DNA of 64,000 nt from assembly GCA_964578835.1 (NCBI GenBank), contig CAZOEL010000018.1, positions 5,088 to 69,087 of the forward strand, written 5' to 3'. This document shows, in pieces, positions 20,837 to 34,669 of the stretch; the stretch's first letter is position 1, and the number at the start of each line of letters is the position of its first letter. The translations under genes were made by a program, and so were the position numbers. The notes below the pieces were generated by a model. That model did no database searches. It saw only the letters and a list, made by a program, of their open reading frames with translations, and was not told where the DNA came from. Source of the stretch: an uncultured Syntrophobacteraceae bacterium (lineage in GTDB: Bacteria; Desulfobacterota; Syntrophobacteria; Syntrophobacterales; Syntrophobacteraceae).

Positions 20837-21119
20837 GACTTCTCCCCTTTTAGGCTCCTCGTAAATGAAGATTGAGAAAAAATATCTTAGTGATTCCAGG
20901 ATGTCAAAACATTCTTCGATAAAGCTTTCCCCTCTTCCGCCATCATGAAAACAGGTTGCCGGCTCAGAAGAATTTCTATCCCAGATCCGGGCGCAACCTC
21001 ACAAGTGGGAAAGACCTTGAACTCCGGCCAATCGTTCTGTAAATTTAGTTTTACAGGACGATGTCCCCAGCTAGACGGATGTTTTGAGAACACCCAATAA
21101 TAAGGAAGAAGGCAAACTG

Positions 21120-23045
21120 ATGAAGCAAGTAGTCTTAGGCACTGCCGGTCACATCGATCACGGAAAAACTTCGCTCATCAGGGCTCTGACGGGCATCGAC
21201 ACGGACCGGCTCAAGGAGGAGAAGCTTCGGGGCATCACCATCGAGCTCGGCTTCGCTCATATGGAGCTGCCCAATGGTGAGCGGCTTGGCATCGTAGACG
21301 TCCCGGGCCATGAGCGCTTTGTGCGCCATATGGTGGCCGGCGCAACCGGAATCGATCTCGTGGCGCTCGTCATTGCCGCCGATGAAGGCGTCATGCCCCA
21401 AACCCGCGAGCACATGGAAATATGCCAGCTTTTGCAGGTCAAGAAAGGACTCGTAGTCCTTACGAAAATAGATATGGTGGAAGATCCCGAGTGGGTGGAA
21501 ATGGTGCGGGACGATGTGGCGGAGTTCATGAAGGGAACCTTCCTTGAGGGAGCGCCCATCATTCCGGTCTCCGCCATCACGAAGGAAGGCATGGATGAGC
21601 TGCGTCAGGCCTTGACCGCTCTGGTGGATGAAGTGGAGCCTCGCAGTGCGGACGGACCATTCAGGCTCTCCGTGGATCGAGTGTTCAGCATGCGCGGCTT
21701 CGGTACGGTCGTGACCGGCACCAGCCTCTCCGGCACGGTGCGCATAGGAGACCCCGTAACCGTTTACCCATCCGAGCACAAGACCAAGGTGCGAGGACTC
21801 CAAGTCCACAATGACGAAGTCGAAACGGTGCTGCCAGGACAGCGCACGGCCATAAACCTTCAGAGCATCGAGCGCATTCTCATCGAGCGCGGCAACGTGA
21901 TAGCAACCCCCGGCGCCCTGGTTGCCACCCATATGATAGATGTTTATCTGACGCTTCTCGAGAGCGCTCCGCGGCCGCTCAAGAACCGCGCAAAGATAAG
22001 GTTTCATACGGGAACCGCCGAGCACCTGGGAACAGCCGTGCTTCTAGACGCTGAAGAGCTTGCCCCGGGAAAAGCGGGCTTTATCCAGATACGCCTCGAT
22101 CAGCCCATCGCCGCTCTGCGGGGAGACCGCTTTGTCATCCGCTCTTATTCTCCCGTTCAGACCATAGGCGGCGGCAGCATTCTGCACCCGCTTCCGGGAA
22201 AGCACAAAGGGCACGGCAAGCTCGAGGCGGCGACAGCCCTAAGAACTCTTCTCGAAGGGGACGAGCCAAGCATCATCTTGTGGCACATTCGGGACGCCGG
22301 TCCGGCGGGCTTGAGCGAAGAAGACCTGCGCGTGAGGGCGAATGTTCCTCCAAAGCTTTTGGAAAAAACCCTTCAGCTTTTCATAAGCCAGAAGAAAGCC
22401 ATCCTCTACGACAAAGACAATCGACGCCTGCTTCATCCCGATACGTTGGAGAGCCTCAAGGAGACCGTTGTTGAAGCGCTGGACGACTATCACAAGCGTT
22501 TCCCTCTAAAAACCGGCATGCCCAAAGAAGAGCTTTCCGCGCAACTCCCAAAGCAAGCGGACGCCAAGCTCTACAACTTCGTTCTGCGCAGACTGGCGGA
22601 AGAGGAAAAGATAGTCCAGGAAATGGAATGGGTGCGCCTTGCTTCACATAAGATCGACCTCACAAAAGATGAGCAGGCGATTCGCCAAAAGATAGAAAAG
22701 GCGTTTCAAGATGCGGGACTTCAGCCGCCGTTCATGAAAGATGTGACGGCGAAGCTTCCGGGAACGCCCCGCCAGCATCAGGACGTCATCGAATGGATGC
22801 TCACGCAGGGGATTCTCATAAAAGCCAAAGAGGATATCTACTTTCACTCCACCGCCCTCAATGAGCTGCAGAGCCGCCTCATCGGCTTTCTCAAAGAGCA
22901 TGGAGAGATCACAACCCCCCAGTTCAAGGAAATGACTCAGGTGAGCCGCAAATACACCATCCCTCTGCTGGAATACTTCGATTCGCAGCGCATCACGATC
23001 CGCATTGGAGACACGCGCAGGCTGCGCGAGAGCAGGGTTGGTTGA
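21120..23045 (+). CDS. selB: Selenocysteine-specific translation elongation factor SelB
   Basis: ATG 21120 after AAGGAAG. GTPase motifs [16 protein letters not shown] and TKID are followed by about 300 aa of winged-helix C-terminal domains, as in bacterial SelB. Confidence 0.92.
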
Positions 23046-25305: not shown

Positions 25306-25680
25306 TCTAATTCTCCTTTTACTGTAATGAGGGATCTTACGTCAAAAACCCGGCGGCTCTAACAGCCATCCGGTGACAAACCATCGTTTAGGTGACATTA
25401 CAAAATACGATAGATATGCTGGTTAGTAAAACAATAGACGCCTCCCATCTCGTTTAGAGGTTTTTGATATAGAGTTTTCCGTTCAACTTCTTTTCTTCTC
25501 TTCACCTGGGGCCGCAAGGAGGCTGTCCAAAATAGCTAAATTTTGGTCAGCCTACGGCAACCTGACTCATTCGTTATCGTCATGCCCACATGCTTATTAC
25601 CGGAAATGACGGGAAGGAGCCTGATTGGAAGTCTTATTCTAAGCCGTTCATTGTATGGCAACCGAGATTGAGCTCTTCTC

Positions 25681-26991
25681 TCATTTCGATATGTCGAGCG
25701 CCTCCACGGTCTCCTGAACCTTTCCCTCATAGAGCTCCTTGCCCGAAGGAAGGAAGGCATTGATCTGCTCCCTATCCTTATAGGCTCCCTTATCCGTTCC
25801 CCCTATGGCGTAGATCCTGCCGTCGGGCGTGGCCACCGCGGCAAGATCACCCCGGCGGGTGTTCATCTTGGGACCCCTCTCCCACTCATCCTTGAGCGGA
25901 TCGTAGATGAAGACATCGGCAAGGGGACCAGTCTCCTCGCTCTTCACCCCTCCCATGACATAAATTTTCCCGTTGGACGCCTGAGCGCACGCATGTCCGC
26001 TCCTAGGCTCGGGCATGGGCTTGCGGTTCGACCAGGCATCGGCTTTGGGATCATACACCTCTGTCACATCGAGGATTGGCGTCTCCTTTCGGGTCGTCAT
26101 TCCAGCCGAGCCGCCAAAAAGATAGATCTTATCGTCCGCTCCCATGACTGCGGCAAAACCCATCCTCTTCGAGCTGAGGGGCTTCTTGTACTCCCACCTC
26201 CCCGTTTGCGGATCAAAGCATTCCATCGTATCCGACACAATCTCGACGGTCTTGCCATCGCGCGGAAATTCAGGCTCTCTTCTGAATCCTCCCATGACGT
26301 ATATCTTCCCGTCCGAGGCCACAACAGCCCTGTGCTCCATGCGTCTCTCTAGCATTCGCGGAAGGTCTGAATACTTGACGTTCATCAGGTGGGTTCCCTC
26401 CCTGGGCGTTACTACAACCTCAGGCCATTTGTCCTTGATCGGATCATAGGGAATGACGACGCTCTCTCCTGTTCCAGTCCACTTCCCCATGCCTCCCAGC
26501 CACCAGATCCCGCCATCTTTTGCAGCCACAATCGCAACACCGTTTCCCTGCCTCTCAAAGCCCGTATTCCTCAGCCTCTCTCGACTCACCTCCCGGTACT
26601 CCACCTTCGTACCATCCCAGCCGCCCATCCTGAGCAGCAGAATATCCTTTTTCTGATTGGGAGGTTGAGTCATATCGAAAAGCAATTCCCATTTTCTGCT
26701 TTCCTCGTTGTAGAAAAGGTACTTGCCAAACAACGCCCACCCAGGAACCGAAGCTAGATAATTCCAGCGGTCCGTCTCCCGATCATAGGCAAGGTTGGAA
26801 TAGTTGCCAGCTGGAATAGCTGGAATATACAAGACTAATCCTCCCATTACATAGATCTTCCCATCAGGCCCAAGAGTGGCCGCATGGCCATATCTTGGAT
26901 GCGGCATGGGGGCGACGAACCGCCAGACGGACTCTCCCCATGCAAATACGGGCAAAAGTAACAAGAACAATGTCATGACTAGCTTTTTCAT
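25681..26991 (-). CDS. Secreted Kelch-repeat beta-propeller protein
   Basis: 436 aa. Signal peptide MKKLVMTLFLLLLPVFAWG. About seven repeats of the DGKIYVMGG type with a W/Y spacing typical of Kelch blades. Confidence 0.85.
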   Translation of the reverse strand: MKKLVMTLFLLLLPVFAWGESVWRFVAPMPHPRYGHAATLGPDGKIYVMGGLVLYIPAIPAGNYSNLAYDRETDRWNYLASVPGWALFGKYLFYNEESRKWELLFDMTQPPNQKKDILLLRMGGWDGTKVEYREVSRERLRNTGFERQGNGVAIVAAKDGGIWWLGGMGKWTGTGESVVIPYDPIKDKWPEVVVTPREGTHLMNVKYSDLPRMLERRMEHRAVVASDGKIYVMGGFRREPEFPRDGKTVEIVSDTMECFDPQTGRWEYKKPLSSKRMGFAAVMGADDKIYLFGGSAGMTTRKETPILDVTEVYDPKADAWSNRKPMPEPRSGHACAQASNGKIYVMGGVKSEETGPLADVFIYDPLKDEWERGPKMNTRRGDLAAVATPDGRIYAIGGTDKGAYKDREQINAFLPSGKELYEGKVQETVEALDISK

Positions 26992-27027
26992 CTGGATGCC
27001 CTTTCCTTTGCGAGCTAAGGGATGCGC

Positions 27028-30000
27028 CTACTCTGGTTTTGGCACAGCAAAGTTGGCTTCCTCCGGTCGCAACGGGACCTCGTTTGCTCCCGGCTTCAGC
27101 ATGATGACGCGAGCGGTTATCTCCGAGGCGTACGTGTCCGGGCAGCCCCCTATGGGCATTGGAAAATCACACGTTGCCGTAAGATAAAGACCCGGATCTT
27201 GAGTATCACGGTCTGAGGAATTGCCATTTACCTTTTTGACCTTATCCGGGTTTACGGTTCCATCGGGAAAGGCGCCGTTGTCGTTTCCTTCCACGATGCG
27301 CCAGTGGCCAAGACCATCCATAGCATAGACAACGAGAACTACCCTGTCAAAATCACGCGCGTAGCAGTTGTACTCGACCCTGACGCTGTACTCGGCATGC
27401 CTCGGCTCATGGGTGTTTGGCCACAGCAGCGTTTCATTTCTCGTGTATGGCGCATAAGGACTCTTTTCTGAAGTCGATACCGTCCAGTCTGAAAGCCCTT
27501 TGAAGATCTCTGTTCTAAGCTTCTCATTGTCTTTGATTCTATATGTCATTGATCCAAAATTGAAATGATCGAAATCGTAGGTGAGACGATCACGGACTTT
27601 CGCTGCATCGAAAAGGCTCTTGCTTCCATCCGATGAACCGGACTTGTAGCAGAATACGCTCGATACCGGAACAACCTTATCATTGGGCTCCCCGAACCAG
27701 GGAGCCCCGTCGGTTCCAGCTATAAGAGTCATCTGCCCATTGGGAACAGAGTAGCCATTTTTATTCAACCGGCAGAGTTGGGGATTCTCGCTGATCAAGC
27801 ACGGCTGCTTGTCGTCATATGCAAGGAGATCGGCCGTTCCCGGAGAGCGGAGGATTTGTAAAAGAAGACTGAACGGCAAGTTACCGCTCAGCGGCAACAC
27901 TTTGGGAAGGAGATTGAAGTTCTCCAAGAAATAGAGAAGCCCGAAGGTGCCGTGATTGGGCGTTCCCGCTATCACCATATCTTTGACGTTTTTCGCACTC
28001 GCCTGATAGGCTCGCGATATAAGCCCACCCATGGAAAAGCCGAAGGTGTTCACATAAGGAAAGTAACCCGATCCCGGATTTTGCGGATCGGCGGGAAGCC
28101 CCTTGAACTTACATGGCTCCTGCATAAATTTGTCGCGCAGTTGCATGGCCAAGTTTCCTCCGATGTCCATCATGTCAGCCCGGCTGTTTGAGCTCACAAA
28201 AACAGGCCGATAGACTCCATTGGAATGGAGCGCCAGATCTCTCAAAATGTAGTAATACCTGCCGCCCTGGTCATTGGGATCCCCTCCTCCGTCATTCATC
28301 AATATGGTTTTAGGATCCCATCCATGGATGACAAGAAGAGGGAGCGCATTAGGATTGGGCGCTTTTAGCGGATGAAGAATGGAGTTCGTCGTTACGGCAT
28401 CCAGTTCGTCTTTGTCCATGACTTTGACATTGGCGGGGGGAAGAATGACATTTTTGAGGCGTCCAGCGGGAACGAAGAAAAACTTCCTGGCAAAGCTAAA
28501 ATTCGGGACATGCCCCTGGGACGCCAGCAAGACCGGCTTCCTCGCACCCAAGCGAGCTATGACGGGACTTCCGGTCTGGGTCGTTGAAAAGTCGACCACT
28601 GCCGCAGAAAGGTTGTTGATTGTGTCCACAAAGATCTCGTATGGCTTTATACGCATAGCTGTCCAGCGGGTCCCGTCAAAATAATACGGAAAGACGGAGG
28701 CTTCATCAATTCCGACGGTATCCGCGCGGGACTCGGAATATCGAGAGAGGATCAAGACCCATCCCGAAAGGGTTGGGATCTCTTCGCCCTGCACCGCAGG
28801 CTCCAGGACCACTTCTGTAATGCGCCCTATGGCTTTGATCCCACTAACCCCCAAACCGGGGTCCAAATCGAGATCGTCTCCGGGCGAAATCGTCGGACCA
28901 TCGGAAGGCGGCATAAGAGTCACCACGGCATCGCCACTCAGCCCTCCTGGAGGTATAACCAAAGTGAACCTTCCGTCTGGCGACTCGATGCTTCCGCCTT
29001 GTGCGGTTAAAATGAGGCCGGAAACCGACTCCGGTGGAGTGGGATCGGTGAGATCCAACGCAAAGTCCGCTGTGGTGACCGTAGCTGTAGTCCCGTCCTC
29101 ATCCGCAAAGACCAGCACGGTTCTTGTCGTTGCGGGGTAGCCCGGAGCATCGATGGAAATACTGACAAGTCCTGCGGGAAGGCCGCTTAGGCTGTAATGT
29201 CCACTCTGGTCGGTTGTGGCGGTTGCTCCGGTTTCAAGCGCGGTGAGAAGCGCGCCCGAAACAGCCGCCTCCGTCTGATCATCCGTAACAGTCCCTTGAA
29301 TGGAGCCCGTTTCGGGTCTTCGCGTCAGAGTAAAATTAAGCGTTGTGGAAGACATGTCGGCCACAACAACATTTGCGACTGACTGTGAGAGATATTCCGA
29401 ATGGTTTATCACAATGCTGTACGTTCCCACCGGAACACTCACAAGATTATAGGTTCCATCGGCTTCGGTGCTCGCAACCAGAAGACCGTCTCCCGCCACT
29501 TCAATATTTGCATGCCGGATGGGCAAACCTGTCGCCGCGTCCGTAACCGTTCCGGTTACCAATCCTATTGTCAACGGGGGAAGAGCAAAGTCTCCTCCGT
29601 TGGAGTCCCCGTCTACAACCACTGTAGGATATATCGAGACGGCTTCGTGATCGAGCGCCATGGCAATGAGCTGGATCGATCCCAGAGGGAGTCCGGATAG
29701 GACATATTTACCGTCCGCGTCGGCAACGGTCTGAATGTCGGAGCCACTCACCTTGACGACGGCTCCATTCAAGGGAAGGCCGCTCATGGCGTCCAAAACA
29801 AAGCCGGCAACCTCCGTCCCGATCTCTTCCGGATTGGCCACACCGGTTATGACGGGCTCAACGATATCCAGAACAAAGGGGGTTCGATCAACGGTAACGC
29901 TTATGGTGGCGTCTATGAAACCATCTTTCACTAACCGGAATGTTTGGGGCCCGAAGGGAACATCGACCAACGCAAAGCCGCCGTTGGAGTCCGTCTCATC

Positions 30001-32622
30001 CGAACTTTCCGCTCCCTGCAAAGTGATTAGAACGCCCGGTTCCGGAAGGAGTGTCCCGGCATTTGTCAGAGTCCCAATAACCTCAGCAACGGCATTCGCA
30101 TCAAATAGAGCAAAGTCCAGCACATACGTTTGACGGGCGCTCACAGCCATGATGGTGGTCTGGGTGTGATAGCCCCCGTGTGAGACTGCGATCTGTGCGG
30201 AACCCAAAGGAATGTTGCTCAAAAGATAAGTCCCGTCATCAAGCGTTTGCACTGCAGAAGTCCCGGCGGCATGAGCAACAGAAATTGCGGCTCCCGCAAG
30301 GGGAAGACCCGTTATAGCATCGGTTATGACTCCCTTTAGGCTTGCGGCGCTTCGAAGAGAAAAATCCAGAGAATATGTCTGTGCGCTCGGCATACTGATC
30401 TGCTGATTTGCCGAGAGGCCCCCATAAGAGGCGCCCGCCTGCGCTTCACCCGGCACAATCTCTGAGATCGTATAAGATCCGTCGGCCCCGGTCAAAACGG
30501 ACTGGGTCCTGCTGGAATCCGTCACTATAACCGTGGCTCCTGCAACCAACTGACCGGTCTCCTCGATTGTCACCTTCCCCGTCAAGACAGCCCCTGTAAG
30601 GATTTTTACCAGAGGCGCATTCACGACAAGCGTCTCTCCTTGTCCTATGCTGGCCGTCGAAGAAAGGGGGTGGTATGCATCTTTAAGAAAGGCGATGGTT
30701 ATAGGGCCGGGAGAAACGTCCTCAATCCTGAACTCTCCCGATAGCCCGGTTTGGACACTTTGAGTCTTGTATGCGTCGTTTACTGTGACCGTCGCCCCGG
30801 CAATGGGCTCAGAGGATGAAGAGTCTGTGACGACGCCAGTGACAATAGCGGTAGGAATGATGATCGTAACCGTGACATGCGCCGTCGCCGCGCCCCCAGG
30901 CCCGGTCGCCGTGATGGTGTAGTCTGTCGTCTGAGTAGGTGAGACACTCAAAATGCCAGTTGTGCTTACGGCGCCGATCCCGGGTTGAATTACGCACGAC
31001 GTTGCATCCGTTGAGGTCCACGATAAAGAGGAGAATTCCCCGGATGCGATGCTTGCCGGACTAGCAGTGATGCTAACGGTTGGCGCGGGATGCGTCACCA
31101 TGATTGTTATGCTTGAGAAGACCGTTCCTCCGGGTCCTGAAGCCTCGATAGTATATGTGGTAGTCTCCGTAGGCGAGACCGAGAGGAATCCATTGGGGGC
31201 CACGCTGCCGATGCCCTGATCGAAGCTCACGCTGCTCGCATCACTCGATGTCCATATGAGCGTGGCTGACTGCCCGGCCATGATCGTTTGCGGGTTTGCA
31301 AATAAGGAGACAGAGGGATCCGGATGGATTACCACTACGGTCGCTTTGGCTGTAGCCGTTCCACCATCTCCCGTTGCCGTAATCGTATAGGTCGTGTTCT
31401 GAGGTGGCGAAATCGAGATCGATCCATTGCAGTCAACAACGCCAATACCTTGATCAATGCTGCACGAATCCGCATTGGTGGAATTCCAGGAGAGCGTACA
31501 TGCGGCTCCCGGCATGATCGATGTTGGGTCTGCACTCATGGCAACCGTCGGAGGAAGTCCTTGAACATGGATAAGGACTTCGGCTGGAACACTGAATGAT
31601 TCGCTGTCATTTACGAATAGCTGAATAAAGTAGTTTCCTGGAAGATCCGGCACAAAAGTTGACGTCGCAGAATGCGCGTCCGAAAAGAAAACATTGCTTC
31701 CAGCCGGACTATCATAGAAATACCATAGGTAATGAAGGGTGTCCCCATCCGGGTCGCTCGATCCGCTGCCATCAAGATTCACGGTTTCACCAACCATTGC
31801 AGATTGTATGAATTCTCCAGAAATTCGAGCCGTAGGAGGCAGTCCGGCAACGTCGACAGTGAACTCCTGGGTCGCCTTCCCTCCTGCCCCGTCAGATACT
31901 TCCACCTTGACGGGAAAAACCCCTCGACCTAGGGGCGTCCAGGTAATTGTCCCGCTTGCAGCATCGATCGCCATTCCGTCAGGCGCTGCCGCAAGACTGT
32001 AGCTCAGAGTGTTCAAATTGGGGTCCGTCGCCCGCACCTGATAACTATAGAAGGATGTGGCCATGCCATCAGCCACAGGCTCAGAATAGATCACTGGATT
32101 ATAGTTTTGGACAATTCTTGTCGTCAGAGGCGTATGGGCGCTTACAACCTCTGAATAATAGGTCTTGTCCGGGAAAACGGTATCGATCCTATAAAGATAT
32201 GTGATCTCATTTGAAACCGTGTAATCTATGTAGACCGAATAAGTTGAGGTGGTTTCAGCGATTTTTTGAAAAGAAAAGGGGGACGATTCCGTTGCCCTGA
32301 GAACGTCGTAACGCACCATGCCGACTTGGTTGGTCCATTGAAGCTGCATCTTGCCCGGTTTGCCTCTTGCAGAGAGGCCAAGCAAGAGCTCCTCCGGTTC
32401 AATAGCCACGAAAGCCGAGCATTCTTTTACGGTACCCGGAATATCCACCGCACGCCCGACCATCTGCCGAAGCTTCCCATCATTCCATTTATGCGCCTGG
32501 GTGAATTCCGGGAGAGGAGAAGTCTGCAGCAACATGAAGAAAACCATAAACTTCAGAATCCTACTGAGGAAAGGATTCAAAATACCTTTCTGTATACCTA
32601 CGACCGGATGCTTTCTTAACAT
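27028..32622 (-). CDS. Giant (1864 aa) secreted multi-domain protein with C-terminal alpha/beta-hydrolase (lipase/esterase-like) domain
   Basis: AGGAG RBS before ATG 32622 and a hydrophobic N-terminus. Domains in order: an FN3-like segment; a cadherin-like/putative-Ig segment (SYSLAAAPDGMAIDAASGTITWTP); a PKD-like segment (VNLDGSGSSDPDGDTLHY); 3 Ig-like modules; 7 CarboxypepD_reg-like modules. The C-terminal hydrolase has LLVIHGW and GFSMGG (28024..28041). Confidence 0.9.
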   Translation of the reverse strand: MLRKHPVVGIQKGILNPFLSRILKFMVFFMLLQTSPLPEFTQAHKWNDGKLRQMVGRAVDIPGTVKECSAFVAIEPEELLLGLSARGKPGKMQLQWTNQVGMVRYDVLRATESSPFSFQKIAETTSTYSVYIDYTVSNEITYLYRIDTVFPDKTYYSEVVSAHTPLTTRIVQNYNPVIYSEPVADGMATSFYSYQVRATDPNLNTLSYSLAAAPDGMAIDAASGTITWTPLGRGVFPVKVEVSDGAGGKATQEFTVDVAGLPPTARISGEFIQSAMVGETVNLDGSGSSDPDGDTLHYLWYFYDSPAGSNVFFSDAHSATSTFVPDLPGNYFIQLFVNDSESFSVPAEVLIHVQGLPPTVAMSADPTSIMPGAACTLSWNSTNADSCSIDQGIGVVDCNGSISISPPQNTTYTITATGDGGTATAKATVVVIHPDPSVSLFANPQTIMAGQSATLIWTSSDASSVSFDQGIGSVAPNGFLSVSPTETTTYTIEASGPGGTVFSSITIMVTHPAPTVSITASPASIASGEFSSLSWTSTDATSCVIQPGIGAVSTTGILSVSPTQTTDYTITATGPGGAATAHVTVTIIIPTAIVTGVVTDSSSSEPIAGATVTVNDAYKTQSVQTGLSGEFRIEDVSPGPITIAFLKDAYHPLSSTASIGQGETLVVNAPLVKILTGAVLTGKVTIEETGQLVAGATVIVTDSSRTQSVLTGADGSYTISEIVPGEAQAGASYGGLSANQQISMPSAQTYSLDFSLRSAASLKGVITDAITGLPLAGAAISVAHAAGTSAVQTLDDGTYLLSNIPLGSAQIAVSHGGYHTQTTIMAVSARQTYVLDFALFDANAVAEVIGTLTNAGTLLPEPGVLITLQGAESSDETDSNGGFALVDVPFGPQTFRLVKDGFIDATISVTVDRTPFVLDIVEPVITGVANPEEIGTEVAGFVLDAMSGLPLNGAVVKVSGSDIQTVADADGKYVLSGLPLGSIQLIAMALDHEAVSIYPTVVVDGDSNGGDFALPPLTIGLVTGTVTDAATGLPIRHANIEVAGDGLLVASTEADGTYNLVSVPVGTYSIVINHSEYLSQSVANVVVADMSSTTLNFTLTRRPETGSIQGTVTDDQTEAAVSGALLTALETGATATTDQSGHYSLSGLPAGLVSISIDAPGYPATTRTVLVFADEDGTTATVTTADFALDLTDPTPPESVSGLILTAQGGSIESPDGRFTLVIPPGGLSGDAVVTLMPPSDGPTISPGDDLDLDPGLGVSGIKAIGRITEVVLEPAVQGEEIPTLSGWVLILSRYSESRADTVGIDEASVFPYYFDGTRWTAMRIKPYEIFVDTINNLSAAVVDFSTTQTGSPVIARLGARKPVLLASQGHVPNFSFARKFFFVPAGRLKNVILPPANVKVMDKDELDAVTTNSILHPLKAPNPNALPLLVIHGWDPKTILMNDGGGDPNDQGGRYYYILRDLALHSNGVYRPVFVSSNSRADMMDIGGNLAMQLRDKFMQEPCKFKGLPADPQNPGSGYFPYVNTFGFSMGGLISRAYQASAKNVKDMVIAGTPNHGTFGLLYFLENFNLLPKVLPLSGNLPFSLLLQILRSPGTADLLAYDDKQPCLISENPQLCRLNKNGYSVPNGQMTLIAGTDGAPWFGEPNDKVVPVSSVFCYKSGSSDGSKSLFDAAKVRDRLTYDFDHFNFGSMTYRIKDNEKLRTEIFKGLSDWTVSTSEKSPYAPYTRNETLLWPNTHEPRHAEYSVRVEYNCYARDFDRVVLVVYAMDGLGHWRIVEGNDNGAFPDGTVNPDKVKKVNGNSSDRDTQDPGLYLTATCDFPMPIGGCPDTYASEITARVIMLKPGANEVPLRPEEANFAVPKPE
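29053..30846 (-). repeat. Seven tandem ~80-aa carboxypeptidase-regulatory-like modules inside the giant CDS
   Basis: The pattern G.V.D..TG.P(L/I)AGA.V.V....T..T..DG.Y.L..(V/I)P.G recurs seven times between about aa 593 and 1190. Confidence 0.75.
30862..31551 (-). repeat. Three tandem ~76-aa Ig-like modules inside the giant CDS
   Basis: Recurring P(T/S)V(S/A)..A.P.SI..G....L.W.S.(D/N)A.S..(I/F)(D/Q).GIG.V...G...VSP...T.YTI.A.G.GG. Three copies lie between aa 358 and 587. Confidence 0.8.
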
Positions 32623-32767
32623 TATGCGCTCCTAACTCGACTTAGGTGGAAATTCTCGCCATAGTCCGGACCCAAAAGGCTCTTAAGAGAAGAGCATCCT
32701 GAACCCGTTTCTAAAATTCCCAGATGGATTTGTTCTTTCTTCTGATACGGTTACGGTCGGAGATAAT

Positions 32768-33478
32768 TCAAAACCTGCAAAAGACTATTATCTGCTTTAA
32801 CGCCAGGCAGGCCAAACCCGCACACAGTAAAACAATAGTTGACGGCTCGGGAACGGGTGTCGGGACAATGTCCAGCGCCTCCAAGAAGCAAACCTGCGAA
32901 AAGGGAACTGAAGGAAAAGAATCTGGATCACTTTGTGTAAGATAAAACGGAGCAGATGGAAGCATTGTGTCGCTAAGAATAAACGTGATGACAGCAGTCT
33001 GTCCCTGGCTCAGAACGAAGTCCCATCCCAAAGCCATGGATACATCATCCGCCTCACTGTTTTCGTTATTGTTATTAAGGATGTTATTCAAGAAATTGTT
33101 GTATACCGTTCCATGAGTATATCCTGGTTCGCCGATCTGCCAAGATTGGCCTGGAGCAAGGGAACCGGCGGGCGATCCAATTTCATTGACAAAGCCATTC
33201 ACATCTTGATCTATCTCATGGTCGAAGAAAGATAAAACATGGTGGGAACCAGGAGAGCTGATGGTTATGGCAATTATGCCAAGACCCGCATTCCAGTCGA
33301 AGCCCGATGTATCAATGCTTGTTGGCAATTGCCCGGATAGGGGAGCCTGAAAGGCGTTATATACGCTTCCATCGACATTAAAACCCCACTCGAGAAGGCT
33401 GATGGCAGCAGCTGAAGCTCTTGAAATCCAAAATGCCATTAGCGACAAAGCCAACAATACTCCAGCAAAGATCTTCAT
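32768..33478 (-). CDS. PEP-CTERM sorting-domain protein
   Basis: 236 aa with a strong RBS (GAAGGAGG) and a signal peptide (…WISRASA/AA). The C-terminus is VPEPSTIVLLCAGLACLALKQIIVFCRF: a PEP motif, a TM helix and a basic tail. Confidence 0.82.
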   Translation of the reverse strand: MKIFAGVLLALSLMAFWISRASAAAISLLEWGFNVDGSVYNAFQAPLSGQLPTSIDTSGFDWNAGLGIIAITISSPGSHHVLSFFDHEIDQDVNGFVNEIGSPAGSLAPGQSWQIGEPGYTHGTVYNNFLNNILNNNNENSEADDVSMALGWDFVLSQGQTAVITFILSDTMLPSAPFYLTQSDPDSFPSVPFSQVCFLEALDIVPTPVPEPSTIVLLCAGLACLALKQIIVFCRF

Positions 33479-33633
33479 TCTGTTCCCCTCCTTCTGTCCG
33501 TACGAGTTTATGTGACAGCAATACAGTTACCCCACGTTGGGAAATATCCACACCTTATCGTCCCATGCTCACTAAAAGATTGGCTTTTGCCAAATTAGCA
33601 CCTCACTCAGCATCTCCAAATTGCCTTCGATGC

Positions 33634-33659
33634 TAATTGCCTGCCGATACAGGCAATTA
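33634..33659. promoter_or_regulatory. Perfect 10-6-10 palindrome TAATTGCCTG-N6-CAGGCAATTA upstream of the PEP-CTERM operon
   Basis: Read directly. A third AATTGCC half-site lies at 33619..33625. The palindrome is about 155-180 nt upstream of ATG 33478. Confidence 0.3.
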
Positions 33660-34669
33660 CGTCCCATGCTTCAGGGCCAACGATTTCACTGGTATTTTGA
33701 AAAGCTTGATCCGGTGAGTAGCCATGGTTGAAGGCTCATAATGTAGCAGCAGGTTTCCGGTCGCTCCTAGAGTGCTGAACCACTCATGTCAGCAAAACCC
33801 AACCTGACAATGCTGTACGGTGCGCAAGATCTGATATTTTTCAGTCAAGAGCAATTCTTTGACACTAGCATTCTTGCTTTCCGATGCAAAAAGGTCGGAC
33901 CTCGAACTGCTATTTCCCTTCTTAAAAAACCCGAGATCGATGGTCAGGACCGATATAGGCGCAGGTGGCAAGCGATAATATCGGCTTCCCAAAAAAATGA
34001 GTCAGTGAAAGACTTCATGCACTGGCTTCCAGGAACTCGCATGCAACGCATAGGGATTAGAATGCAGAACATTTGTGTGATTGCAAGGTAATGCAAGATA
34101 TGGGCCTACATATTCAATAACATCCAGAGAAGGGACTTCCTTATTTATTCTAATAGCTTAAGATCCATCTAGAATGCGATCATCCTCTTTTCTCTATGCC
34201 TATTCCAATACAATTTGTAAATATCTCCGACACTGAGCTAACATTCTTGATCTTAGACACTGTCCAAGTAACCATTTAGGCATAAGTTTATGGGTTGTAA
34301 AGAAATTCGACACATCATAGGTGTGGCTTCACATGTGAGTGGTAAAGTAAACCTGACGTCGGTTGGAATTCGCGCTTCCTACGGCAGTATAGCCCTTGGC
34401 TCGTGTTCTATCGGCGATGCGCTCCCCTAATATTGAAGTCTAAGAAACCGATTGCCAAGCCAATGGCGATAGCGAAAAAACAACCGAGTATGCCCACAAT
34501 TCGAACCGCTGTTCGCCGATGAAGAGTGAAGTGCTTAGAGCTATGACGTAAAAGAGAATCGTCTCCGGCTGGAGGGGATCATGGCAAGATATTGAATATT
34601 CAGCCACATCGGAATGGAGGATCGATGAAGCGAGGATGAGCAATGTCAGGGATTCTAAAAGGAAGCCCG

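Follow-up and report, generated by a model that had tools for sequence, protein, structure and literature searches.

A composite locus in an uncultured Syntrophobacteraceae bacterium joins a lipase-like hydrolase-Kelch gene pair with a PEP-CTERM protein family

In the operons of family I.1/I.2 lipases, the lipase gene is followed directly by an accessory gene. Lipase effectors with immunity proteins in the periplasm are known, as is an immunity protein with a beta-propeller fold (10.1101/2023.03.28.534661). The ZU5 domain is listed among the processing domains of Sec-dependent polymorphic toxins and is also found in large lipase-carrying surface proteins (PMC3482391), and a CxH motif has been given for its autoproteolysis (PMC3482391; Zhang, Aravind et al. 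2012). The locus analyzed here combines known kinds of element, namely a secreted hydrolase with an accessory gene, a polymorphic-toxin-like cassette and a PEP-CTERM surface protein. It lies on the minus strand of a 64,000-nucleotide (nt) stretch of DNA (the window) from an uncultured Syntrophobacteraceae bacterium (GenBank assembly GCA_964578835.1, contig CAZOEL010000018.1, positions 5,088 to 69,087) and comprises the genes for a PEP-CTERM protein of 236 amino acids (aa) (33478..32768), a giant, putatively secreted multidomain protein of 1864 aa (32622..27028) and a Kelch propeller protein of 436 aa (26991..25681).

The gaps between the genes are exactly 145 nt (PEP-CTERM gene to giant) and 36 nt (giant to Kelch gene), and Shine-Dalgarno-like motifs precede all three starts (GAAGGAGGGG at the PEP-CTERM gene, AGGAG at the giant, AAGGAAAGGG at the Kelch gene). 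This layout had been described in an earlier reading of the sequence (the original prediction), which also called a PEP-CTERM tail on the first protein and a lipase/esterase domain on the second; all three calls are borne out by the analyses below. The original prediction further treated the three genes as one module. That part did not hold, as the families are not co-conserved in the synteny comparison. The unit is instead a composite, in which a pair formed by the PEP-CTERM family and a domain of the giant termed gN1, and a pair formed by the hydrolase head of the giant and the Kelch gene, share one giant protein.

The resemblance to Sec-dependent polymorphic toxins and to the ZU5 lipase surface proteins (PMC3482391) lies in a giant repeat-rich secreted protein with a C-terminal enzyme and a ZU5-like region upstream of it. 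A tightly linked gene follows downstream in both. In the present family, 5'-truncated orphan cassettes occur in one locus (denoted L014), and the distribution over phyla is patchy. Unlike in those systems, the ZU5-like region of the locus is without CxH, and the scaffold was not seen with other toxin folds. Neither the hydrolase head family nor a Kelch partner is described in that source, where the word 'Kelch' is absent. The Tle-Tli pairs of the type 6 secretion system (T6SS) similarly consist of a GxSxG alpha/beta-hydrolase gene adjoining the gene for an exported partner protein, but no VgrG, Hcp, PAAR or other T6SS gene stands beside any of the ~25 hydrolase loci, and the giant of this locus has a putative Sec signal, a long stalk and a Kelch propeller as partner. 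With the family I.1/I.2 lipases and their Lif proteins (LipA-LipB) the locus shares the accessory gene directly downstream, and the elbow and GTPxHG segment give the best PDB sequence match to these enzymes. Here, however, the enzyme lies between a ZU5-like and a beta-sandwich domain at the end of a giant stalk, and the partner is a beta-propeller and not a helical Lif. Floc PepA (NF033554; PMC9850573) is, like the first protein of the locus, a small (~240-260 aa) secreted PEP-CTERM protein, but the window shows neither exopolysaccharide (EPS) nor prsT context, and the PEP-CTERM family is tied to gN1 partners. NanM/YjhT mutarotase is likewise an exported Kelch propeller, and JGI pipelines label several homologues of the Kelch protein 'N-acetylneuraminic acid mutarotase'; a sialic-acid operon context is, however, absent. 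No description of Kelch proteins with such hydrolases, of Kelch with PEP-CTERM proteins, or of a PEP-CTERM-FN3 pairing was found in the literature searched. The original prediction could assign the combination to no known system, and no published match was found.

The hydrolase head and its Kelch partner gene

The C-terminal part of the giant contains an alpha/beta-hydrolase (lipase-like) domain (27466..28350, minus strand, aa ~1425-1719). It is preceded by a ZU5-like double beta-sandwich (28411..29028, minus strand, aa ~1199-1404) and followed by a C-terminal beta-sandwich (27031..27402, minus strand, aa ~1741-1864), which is conserved along with the hydrolase. The motifs LLVIHGW, VYRPVF, GFSMGG, GTPNHG, NDxVVPV and FxHxNxG mark the last 675 residues. 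The triad Ser1530/Asp1648/His1686, with GFSMGG as the elbow, is in canonical order and invariant in 20/20 homologues; its codons on the minus strand were verified at nt 28033-28035 (Ser), 27679-27681 (Asp) and 27565-27567 (His).

An AlphaFold (AF2) model of the C-terminal region (predicted local distance difference test score, pLDDT, 77.7; predicted TM-score 0.80) contains the ZU5-like region, the alpha/beta-hydrolase and the beta-sandwich. In Foldseek the hydrolase model matched many alpha/beta hydrolases and lipases with a probability of at least 0.98 and target TM-scores of 0.4-0.5, including lipases of Pseudomonas, Burkholderia and Acinetobacter, a polyhydroxybutyrate (PHB) depolymerase and the LipA:LipB complex 9g8u. 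Comparison of the family profile with PDB sequences gave the putative lipase 7v3k (E=7.5e-5) and the family I.2 lipases 1qge, 1tah and 1cvl (E ~3e-3), the matches being confined to the elbow and GTPxHG segment (~40 residues in the case of the family I lipases). No Pfam or NCBIfam family scored above cut-off in the last 675 residues, and the curated families (Abhydrolase_1, PGAP1, Palm_thioest, lipases) remained below their gathering scores in all 15 members scanned. The head of the giant is, on this model, of the alpha/beta-hydrolase fold and lipase-like, and triad and fold together predict that it is catalytically competent.

The ZU5-like region opens with the pattern GG..(x)..P.G..L.IPPG and matched the ankyrin ZU5A-ZU5B structures (3ud2, 4d8o) with a Foldseek probability of 1.0. 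It lacks the CxH autopeptidase motif because it has no Cys. The stalk (29053..32097, minus strand) consists of He_PIG and PKD domains (aa 176-352), three Ig-like domains (aa ~357-590) and seven CarboxypepD_reg domains (aa ~592-1190). Among homologues the number and kind of stalk domains are highly variable; the shortest protein has 632 aa and the longest at least 4236 aa.

Searches with the hydrolase head yielded 14 homologues in a word-indexed search; an exhaustive HMMER search over 1.84 billion cluster representatives yielded 66 clusters at E<=1e-30, a number that rose to 109 at E<=1e-10, so that the family is rare. In all cases the match extends as far as the C-terminal end of the protein. 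When one genome per species was scanned, 24 hydrolase loci were recovered, all in metagenome-assembled genomes (MAGs), from Desulfobacterales, Syntrophobacteraceae, Aminicenantes, Acidobacteria, Myxococcota, Spirochaetaceae and an Actinomycetota bin; the hosts are uncultured anaerobes of sediment and wastewater. Since the hydrolase-Kelch cassette is both rare and patchy across phyla, its accessory status, which the original prediction had sought in base composition, is better supported by this distribution. The best homologues come from Syntrophobacteraceae and Desulfobacterales MAGs, which points tentatively to a Desulfobacterota host. The exact giant sequence recurs together with both neighbour proteins on two contigs, one of 88 kb from NCBI and one from Logan (run ERR3839026), and the window is accordingly a metagenome-assembled sequence.

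A Kelch homologue lies directly downstream of the hydrolase in 20/20 loci that have downstream sequence, as one to three genes. The five hydrolase loci without Kelch all stop at or within the hydrolase gene; one of them, L015, is identical in sequence to L117, and there two Kelch genes are present downstream. The spacing ranges from an overlap of up to 39 nt to a short gap, with distances between high-scoring segment pairs of 10-249 nt. In the reverse direction, a hydrolase gene was found directly upstream of the Kelch homologue (33-44% identity) in 4/5 long contigs, the exception being L115. All-against-all clustering of the neighbouring open reading frames (ORFs) revealed no third conserved family across ~25 distinct hydrolase loci. 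The pairwise identities of hydrolase and Kelch proteins are correlated (r=0.90, Mantel p ~5e-4), and their means are nearly the same (0.41 for Kelch, 0.40 for the hydrolase). By synteny and co-variation the Kelch gene is a conserved partner of the hydrolase head, which it almost always follows.

The Kelch protein of the window (25681..26991, minus strand) has a putative signal peptide at aa 1-19, assigned by eye like the other signal peptides of the locus. Its Kelch repeats are strongly supported (Pfam Kelch_1, E=7e-40). The original prediction of a secreted, seven-bladed propeller is upheld as regards the Kelch repeats; as regards the blades, seven GG motifs are present, yet the best solved relatives are six-bladed. 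A signal peptide occurs in nearly all Kelch homologues, some of which carry a lipobox-like site. The NCBI record annotates the gene as 383 aa (P0036), with a start downstream of the signal peptide; the 436-aa start is supported by full-length alignment with homologues, all of which begin with a signal peptide. The protein misses the NanM/mutarotase cut-offs (TIGR03547, 62.1 versus 256; NF010730, 64 versus 416).

Short forms of the hydrolase without a signal peptide were also observed, with starts inside the last stalk domain or the ZU5-like domain. The clearest are at L014 (4196-19200, Desulfobacterales MAG JAIPEE010000011.1), where a giant, a Kelch gene, an orphan hydrolase, a second Kelch gene and a cut-off orphan hydrolase follow one another. 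Both orphans are 5'-truncated, lack a signal peptide and begin at the same point of the last stalk domain. Their identity to the main gene is 78-96% in the first ~150 aa (the handle) and only 42-60% in the head. The first orphan has its own Kelch gene, whose product is 73-75% identical to the first Kelch, and the second ends early beside a transposase-like gene. The gene behind this array, whose product begins with MARQWRIEYPGAIYHVMSRGN...HYHLLL, appears to encode an IS200/REP-associated tyrosine transposase. Truncated hydrolase remnants in L003 and L004 are still accompanied by Kelch genes. The hydrolase has two or three Kelch genes behind it in L004, L010, L022, L114, L116 and L117; in L116 (4419-9875) three Kelch paralogues after one giant are interspersed with a 153-aa ORF and a 195-aa ankyrin-repeat protein. 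Transposase genes are found nearby in L005, L014 and L115.

At L115 (2572-3693 and 7095-11410; ENA ERZ21862326 contig_3), a Kelch protein of the same subfamily (42% identical) is encoded behind genes other than the hydrolase. Its gene is preceded by those of a 694-aa secreted protein and of three small ORFs (97, 112 and 42 aa), and the whole cassette is duplicated among transposase genes and insertion sequences. The 112-aa ORF looks membrane-spanning. The HFHDP and MHLISDAAVPAHVRND motifs of the 694-aa protein resemble those of Zn-phospholipase C or P1 nuclease, but such an identity is unsupported, Pfam, NCBIfam and PDB sequence searches having returned nothing.

The PEP-CTERM family and the gN1 domain

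The PEP-CTERM protein (32768..33478, minus strand) consists of a putative signal peptide (aa 1-23), a beta-sandwich domain (aa 24-205) and the PEP-CTERM tail (aa 208-236; nt 32771-32857, minus strand). The tail passes the cut-offs of both hidden Markov models (HMMs), PF07589 (Pfam; 22.6 versus 20.7) and TIGR02595 (TIGRFAM; 23.6 versus 16). The protein belongs to a coherent family, with 20 homologues in the word-indexed search and at least 252 metagenomic relatives, and with the conserved motifs FNVDGT, FFDHEID, GQSWEIDEPGY and DDVSMALGWDF. The AF2 model of the family domain is an all-beta sandwich (pLDDT 87.7), for which a PDB fold search gave nothing significant (top match E=0.04). The alignment with floc PepA (NF033554) reaches past the sorting tail, covering aa 84-226 of the window protein, and does likewise in the L031 homologue; both scores are below threshold (24.9 and 30.2 bits, cut-off 80), which places the two proteins outside PepA. 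Nor is an EPS or floc setting present in the window, where the PEP-CTERM gene is flanked by housekeeping genes. An identity with ZepA was dismissed, as the motif H-x(2-9)-H-[FY]-H described for that zinc-handling PEP-CTERM protein (PMC10957091) is absent from the family.

The neighbour of a PEP-family gene is nearly always on the same strand and is often a large secreted protein bearing gN1. In the window giant this FN3-like domain (32122..32400, minus strand, aa 75-167) is without a Pfam match and scores 110.9 bits with the gN1 HMM. By HMM, gN1 stands beside the PEP-family gene in 19/36 loci with at least 2.5 kb of flank, corresponding to ~14 distinct loci. The partners are of several kinds: PKD proteins of ~830-880 aa with a C-terminal gN1, a protein of 1700 aa that combines He_PIG, PKD and propeller, and single proteins with 12 PKD domains, with a MopE motif and with RHS repeats. 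At L111 (918-1925), a single 335-aa protein is made up of a signal peptide, a complete gN1, the PEP-family domain and a PEP-CTERM tail. Two elements that elsewhere reside in adjacent genes are here naturally fused, which supports the view that gN1 and the PEP-family domain are functionally linked. Adjacency and fusion together suggest that gN1 is possibly a docking or anchoring domain for the PEP-CTERM protein.

At L080 (2010-9328), the gene directly behind that of the PEP family encodes more than 2192 aa and combines gN1 with six He_PIG domains, DUF6531 and 19 RHS repeats; a toxin-type scaffold adjoins a PEP-CTERM family gene here.

The gN1-PEP pair and the hydrolase-Kelch pair meet in the window. 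The PEP-family gene is absent from every other hydrolase locus (~25 distinct loci), and neither a hydrolase nor a Kelch gene turned up at any of the 84 PEP-family loci. The gN1 domain itself was found in two giants across the hydrolase loci, that of the window and one homologue (L015, the same sequence as L117).

In the Myxococcota MAG of L004 (6038-9472), an 1144-aa protein encoded upstream of the truncated hydrolase remnant ends in VPVPEPAS, a hydrophobic stretch and an Arg-rich tail. This end resembles a PEP-CTERM tail with an unusually long basic extension; the protein is unrelated to the PEP family of the window.

Possible roles of the two pairs

The reading that we rank first, and hold tentatively, is that the giant displays a lipase-like effector on a stalk, with the Kelch protein as its cognate immunity-like or chaperone-like binding partner, and possibly with a tether through the PEP-CTERM protein. 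The giant would be exported via Sec and would carry its lipase-like serine hydrolase head at the far end of the variable beta-sandwich stalk. The Kelch propeller, encoded 36 nt downstream, exported and dedicated to the head, may bind it in the periplasm or at the surface as a cognate inhibitor, in an immunity-like or holding-chaperone-like manner. The cassette would act like a Sec-dependent polymorphic effector-immunity module, the effector of which may be directed at lipids or esters, either in neighbouring cells or in the matrix. On the other side of the giant, gN1 would connect to the upstream PEP-CTERM protein. An exosortase encoded elsewhere would process this protein, and through it the giant would be held at the cell surface. 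In architecture and adjacency the locus corresponds to polymorphic toxins, with a C-terminal domain on a secreted multidomain protein and a partner gene directly downstream. A conserved handle with a diverged C-terminal head and a cognate downstream gene is, moreover, a signature of polymorphic toxin loci. It is clear in one locus (L014), to which the truncated remnants of L003 and L004 can be added. Also in favour of this reading are the synteny from both directions without a third conserved neighbour, the co-variation, the invariant triad and the fold, the constant C-terminal position of the domain, the additional Kelch genes, the nearby transposase genes, the rarity of the family across distant phyla and the published precedents for ZU5 domains and lipase immunity proteins; the tether is suggested by the adjacency and fusion of gN1 and the PEP family.

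Several observations weigh against this reading. The Kelch proteins are large (420-490 aa) and about equal to the hydrolase in conservation, whereas immunity proteins are typically small and evolve fast. No type 5, type 6 or type 7 secretion or delivery genes are conserved near the hydrolase loci, and homologous giants with the same handle and other toxin folds were not found. Of the releasing peptidases (ZU5 with CxH, HINT and others) only a Cys-free ZU5-like fold is seen. The occurrence of the L115 Kelch with an unrelated protein makes a substrate-level partner a better fit than a fold-specific inhibitor. The anchoring part is weakened by the weak basic cluster behind the PEP-CTERM helix (K...R, without a strong Arg cluster), by the confinement of the PEP-family gene to the window among hydrolase loci, and by the exosortase: as the original prediction had noted, neither an exosortase nor an EPS family was detected among the ~40 large ORFs of the window that were scanned.

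In a wider form, both pairs are explained jointly: the PEP-CTERM protein would capture gN1 on interchangeable giant cargos (PKD proteins, the propeller-bearing giant, the RHS-repeat protein and the window hydrolase), and the lipase head with its Kelch immunity protein would constitute a new polymorphic family that diversifies by orphan cassettes. Taken as a whole, this combined proposal is distinctly unlikely. If the reading ranked first holds, the hydrolase would represent a new, rare lipase-like family without a Pfam or NCBIfam model, and a Kelch propeller would be the obligate partner of a secreted hydrolase, as immunity, chaperone or targeting subunit, a pairing new to the literature searched. 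PEP-CTERM proteins may then serve as docking anchors for cargo that is not itself PEP-CTERM, through a dedicated FN3-like domain, which bears on the roles of exosortase substrates. Surface biology and antagonism are little known in the hosts (Desulfobacterota, Aminicenantes, Myxococcota and others).

The strongest alternative, though a somewhat unlikely one, is a nutritional or matrix-remodelling exoenzyme acting on an extracellular ester-linked substrate such as lipid, polyester or acylated polysaccharide. The Kelch protein would engage that substrate too, in a lectin-like or product-handling capacity, and would be no inhibitor of the enzyme. ZU5/adhesion/lipase surface proteins have been tied to possible extracellular polymer degradation or remodelling (PMC3482391), and the sediment and wastewater habitats of the anaerobic hosts are consistent with such a role, as are the lipases and PHB depolymerase among the Foldseek matches. 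The equal conservation of Kelch and enzyme, the L115 Kelch of the same subfamily beside a different secreted protein, and the lack of conserved secretion-system or toxin-delivery genes nearby point the same way. Orphan cassettes with a conserved handle and diverged head, and repeated Kelch genes, would however be unexpected if the enzyme were simply catabolic; neither transporter genes nor genes of catabolism are conserved beside the pair, and the Kelch protein is far below the NanM-type cut-offs.

A role of the Kelch protein as steric foldase or secretion chaperone of the head, comparable to that of Lif for LipA, is very unlikely; it would then serve in folding or exporting the head and not in protection. 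The gene order, lipase then accessory gene, resembles the family I.1/I.2 operons, the LipA:LipB complex is among the structural matches, and family I lipases are the best sequence matches of the profile. In one studied case, an ankyrin-repeat immunity protein is also required to activate its lipase effector (10.1101/2023.03.28.534661). The Kelch fold is, however, unrelated to Lif, the likeness to family I lipases covers only ~40 residues at E ~3e-3, and several diverged Kelch copies per locus together with orphan cassettes are not expected of a foldase.

Least probable of all is the single PEP-CTERM/exosortase-dependent matrix module of three interdependent families that was originally proposed: the common strand, the short gaps, the link of gN1 to the PEP family and the PEP-CTERM-like tail upstream of the L004 remnant speak for it, but it is made highly improbable by the separate distribution of the families, by the differing composition of the PEP-CTERM gene and, for what it is worth, by a weak terminator-like hairpin between that gene and the giant, such matches being not above chance.

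Composition and surroundings of the locus

The original prediction had placed the three genes as an accessory block with AT-richer, gene-poor borders between housekeeping genes. The guanine-cytosine content (GC) of the flanking intergenic DNA is indeed lower (0.44 at 25306..25680 and 0.45 at 33479..34669, versus 0.528 for the whole window), but this is ordinary for intergenic DNA. An accessory origin read from composition applies to the PEP-CTERM gene only. Its GC of 0.467 and third-position GC (GC3) of 0.468 lie 3-4 standard deviations (sd) below the background genes of the window (GC 0.535+-0.022, GC3 0.621+-0.036; ~4 sd for GC3), and it is the sole outlier of the three. The giant (GC 0.531, GC3 0.562) and the Kelch gene (GC 0.545, GC3 0.641) are background-like.

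The surrounding genes are housekeeping or unrelated. Those that flank the block include the genes for SelB, a DUF2145 protein, an M20 peptidase and a carboxyltransferase; others in the window are for TatC, FtsH, FolP, GlmM, Mpl, HisF, homoserine dehydrogenase, acetyl-CoA enzymes and more. tRNA and Rfam scans of the window were both empty. A promoter and terminator scan of the three-gene unit gave counts not above those of shuffled sequence and was uninformative on co-transcription. A sigma-54 promoter upstream of the PEP-CTERM gene was considered and dismissed: the pattern gave 20 matches versus 27.7 expected by chance, and the sole sigma-54-like match within 33479-34669 (34107..34092, two mismatches) is within chance expectation.

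The 1.19 kb at 33479-34669, upstream of the PEP-CTERM gene, are gene-poor, with a GC of 0.45 and without a tRNA, an Rfam match or a convincing ORF. On the other side, 2.6 kb from the unit, lies the gene for SelB, the selenocysteine-specific elongation factor (21084-23045); its presence in the window indicates that the host uses selenoproteins.

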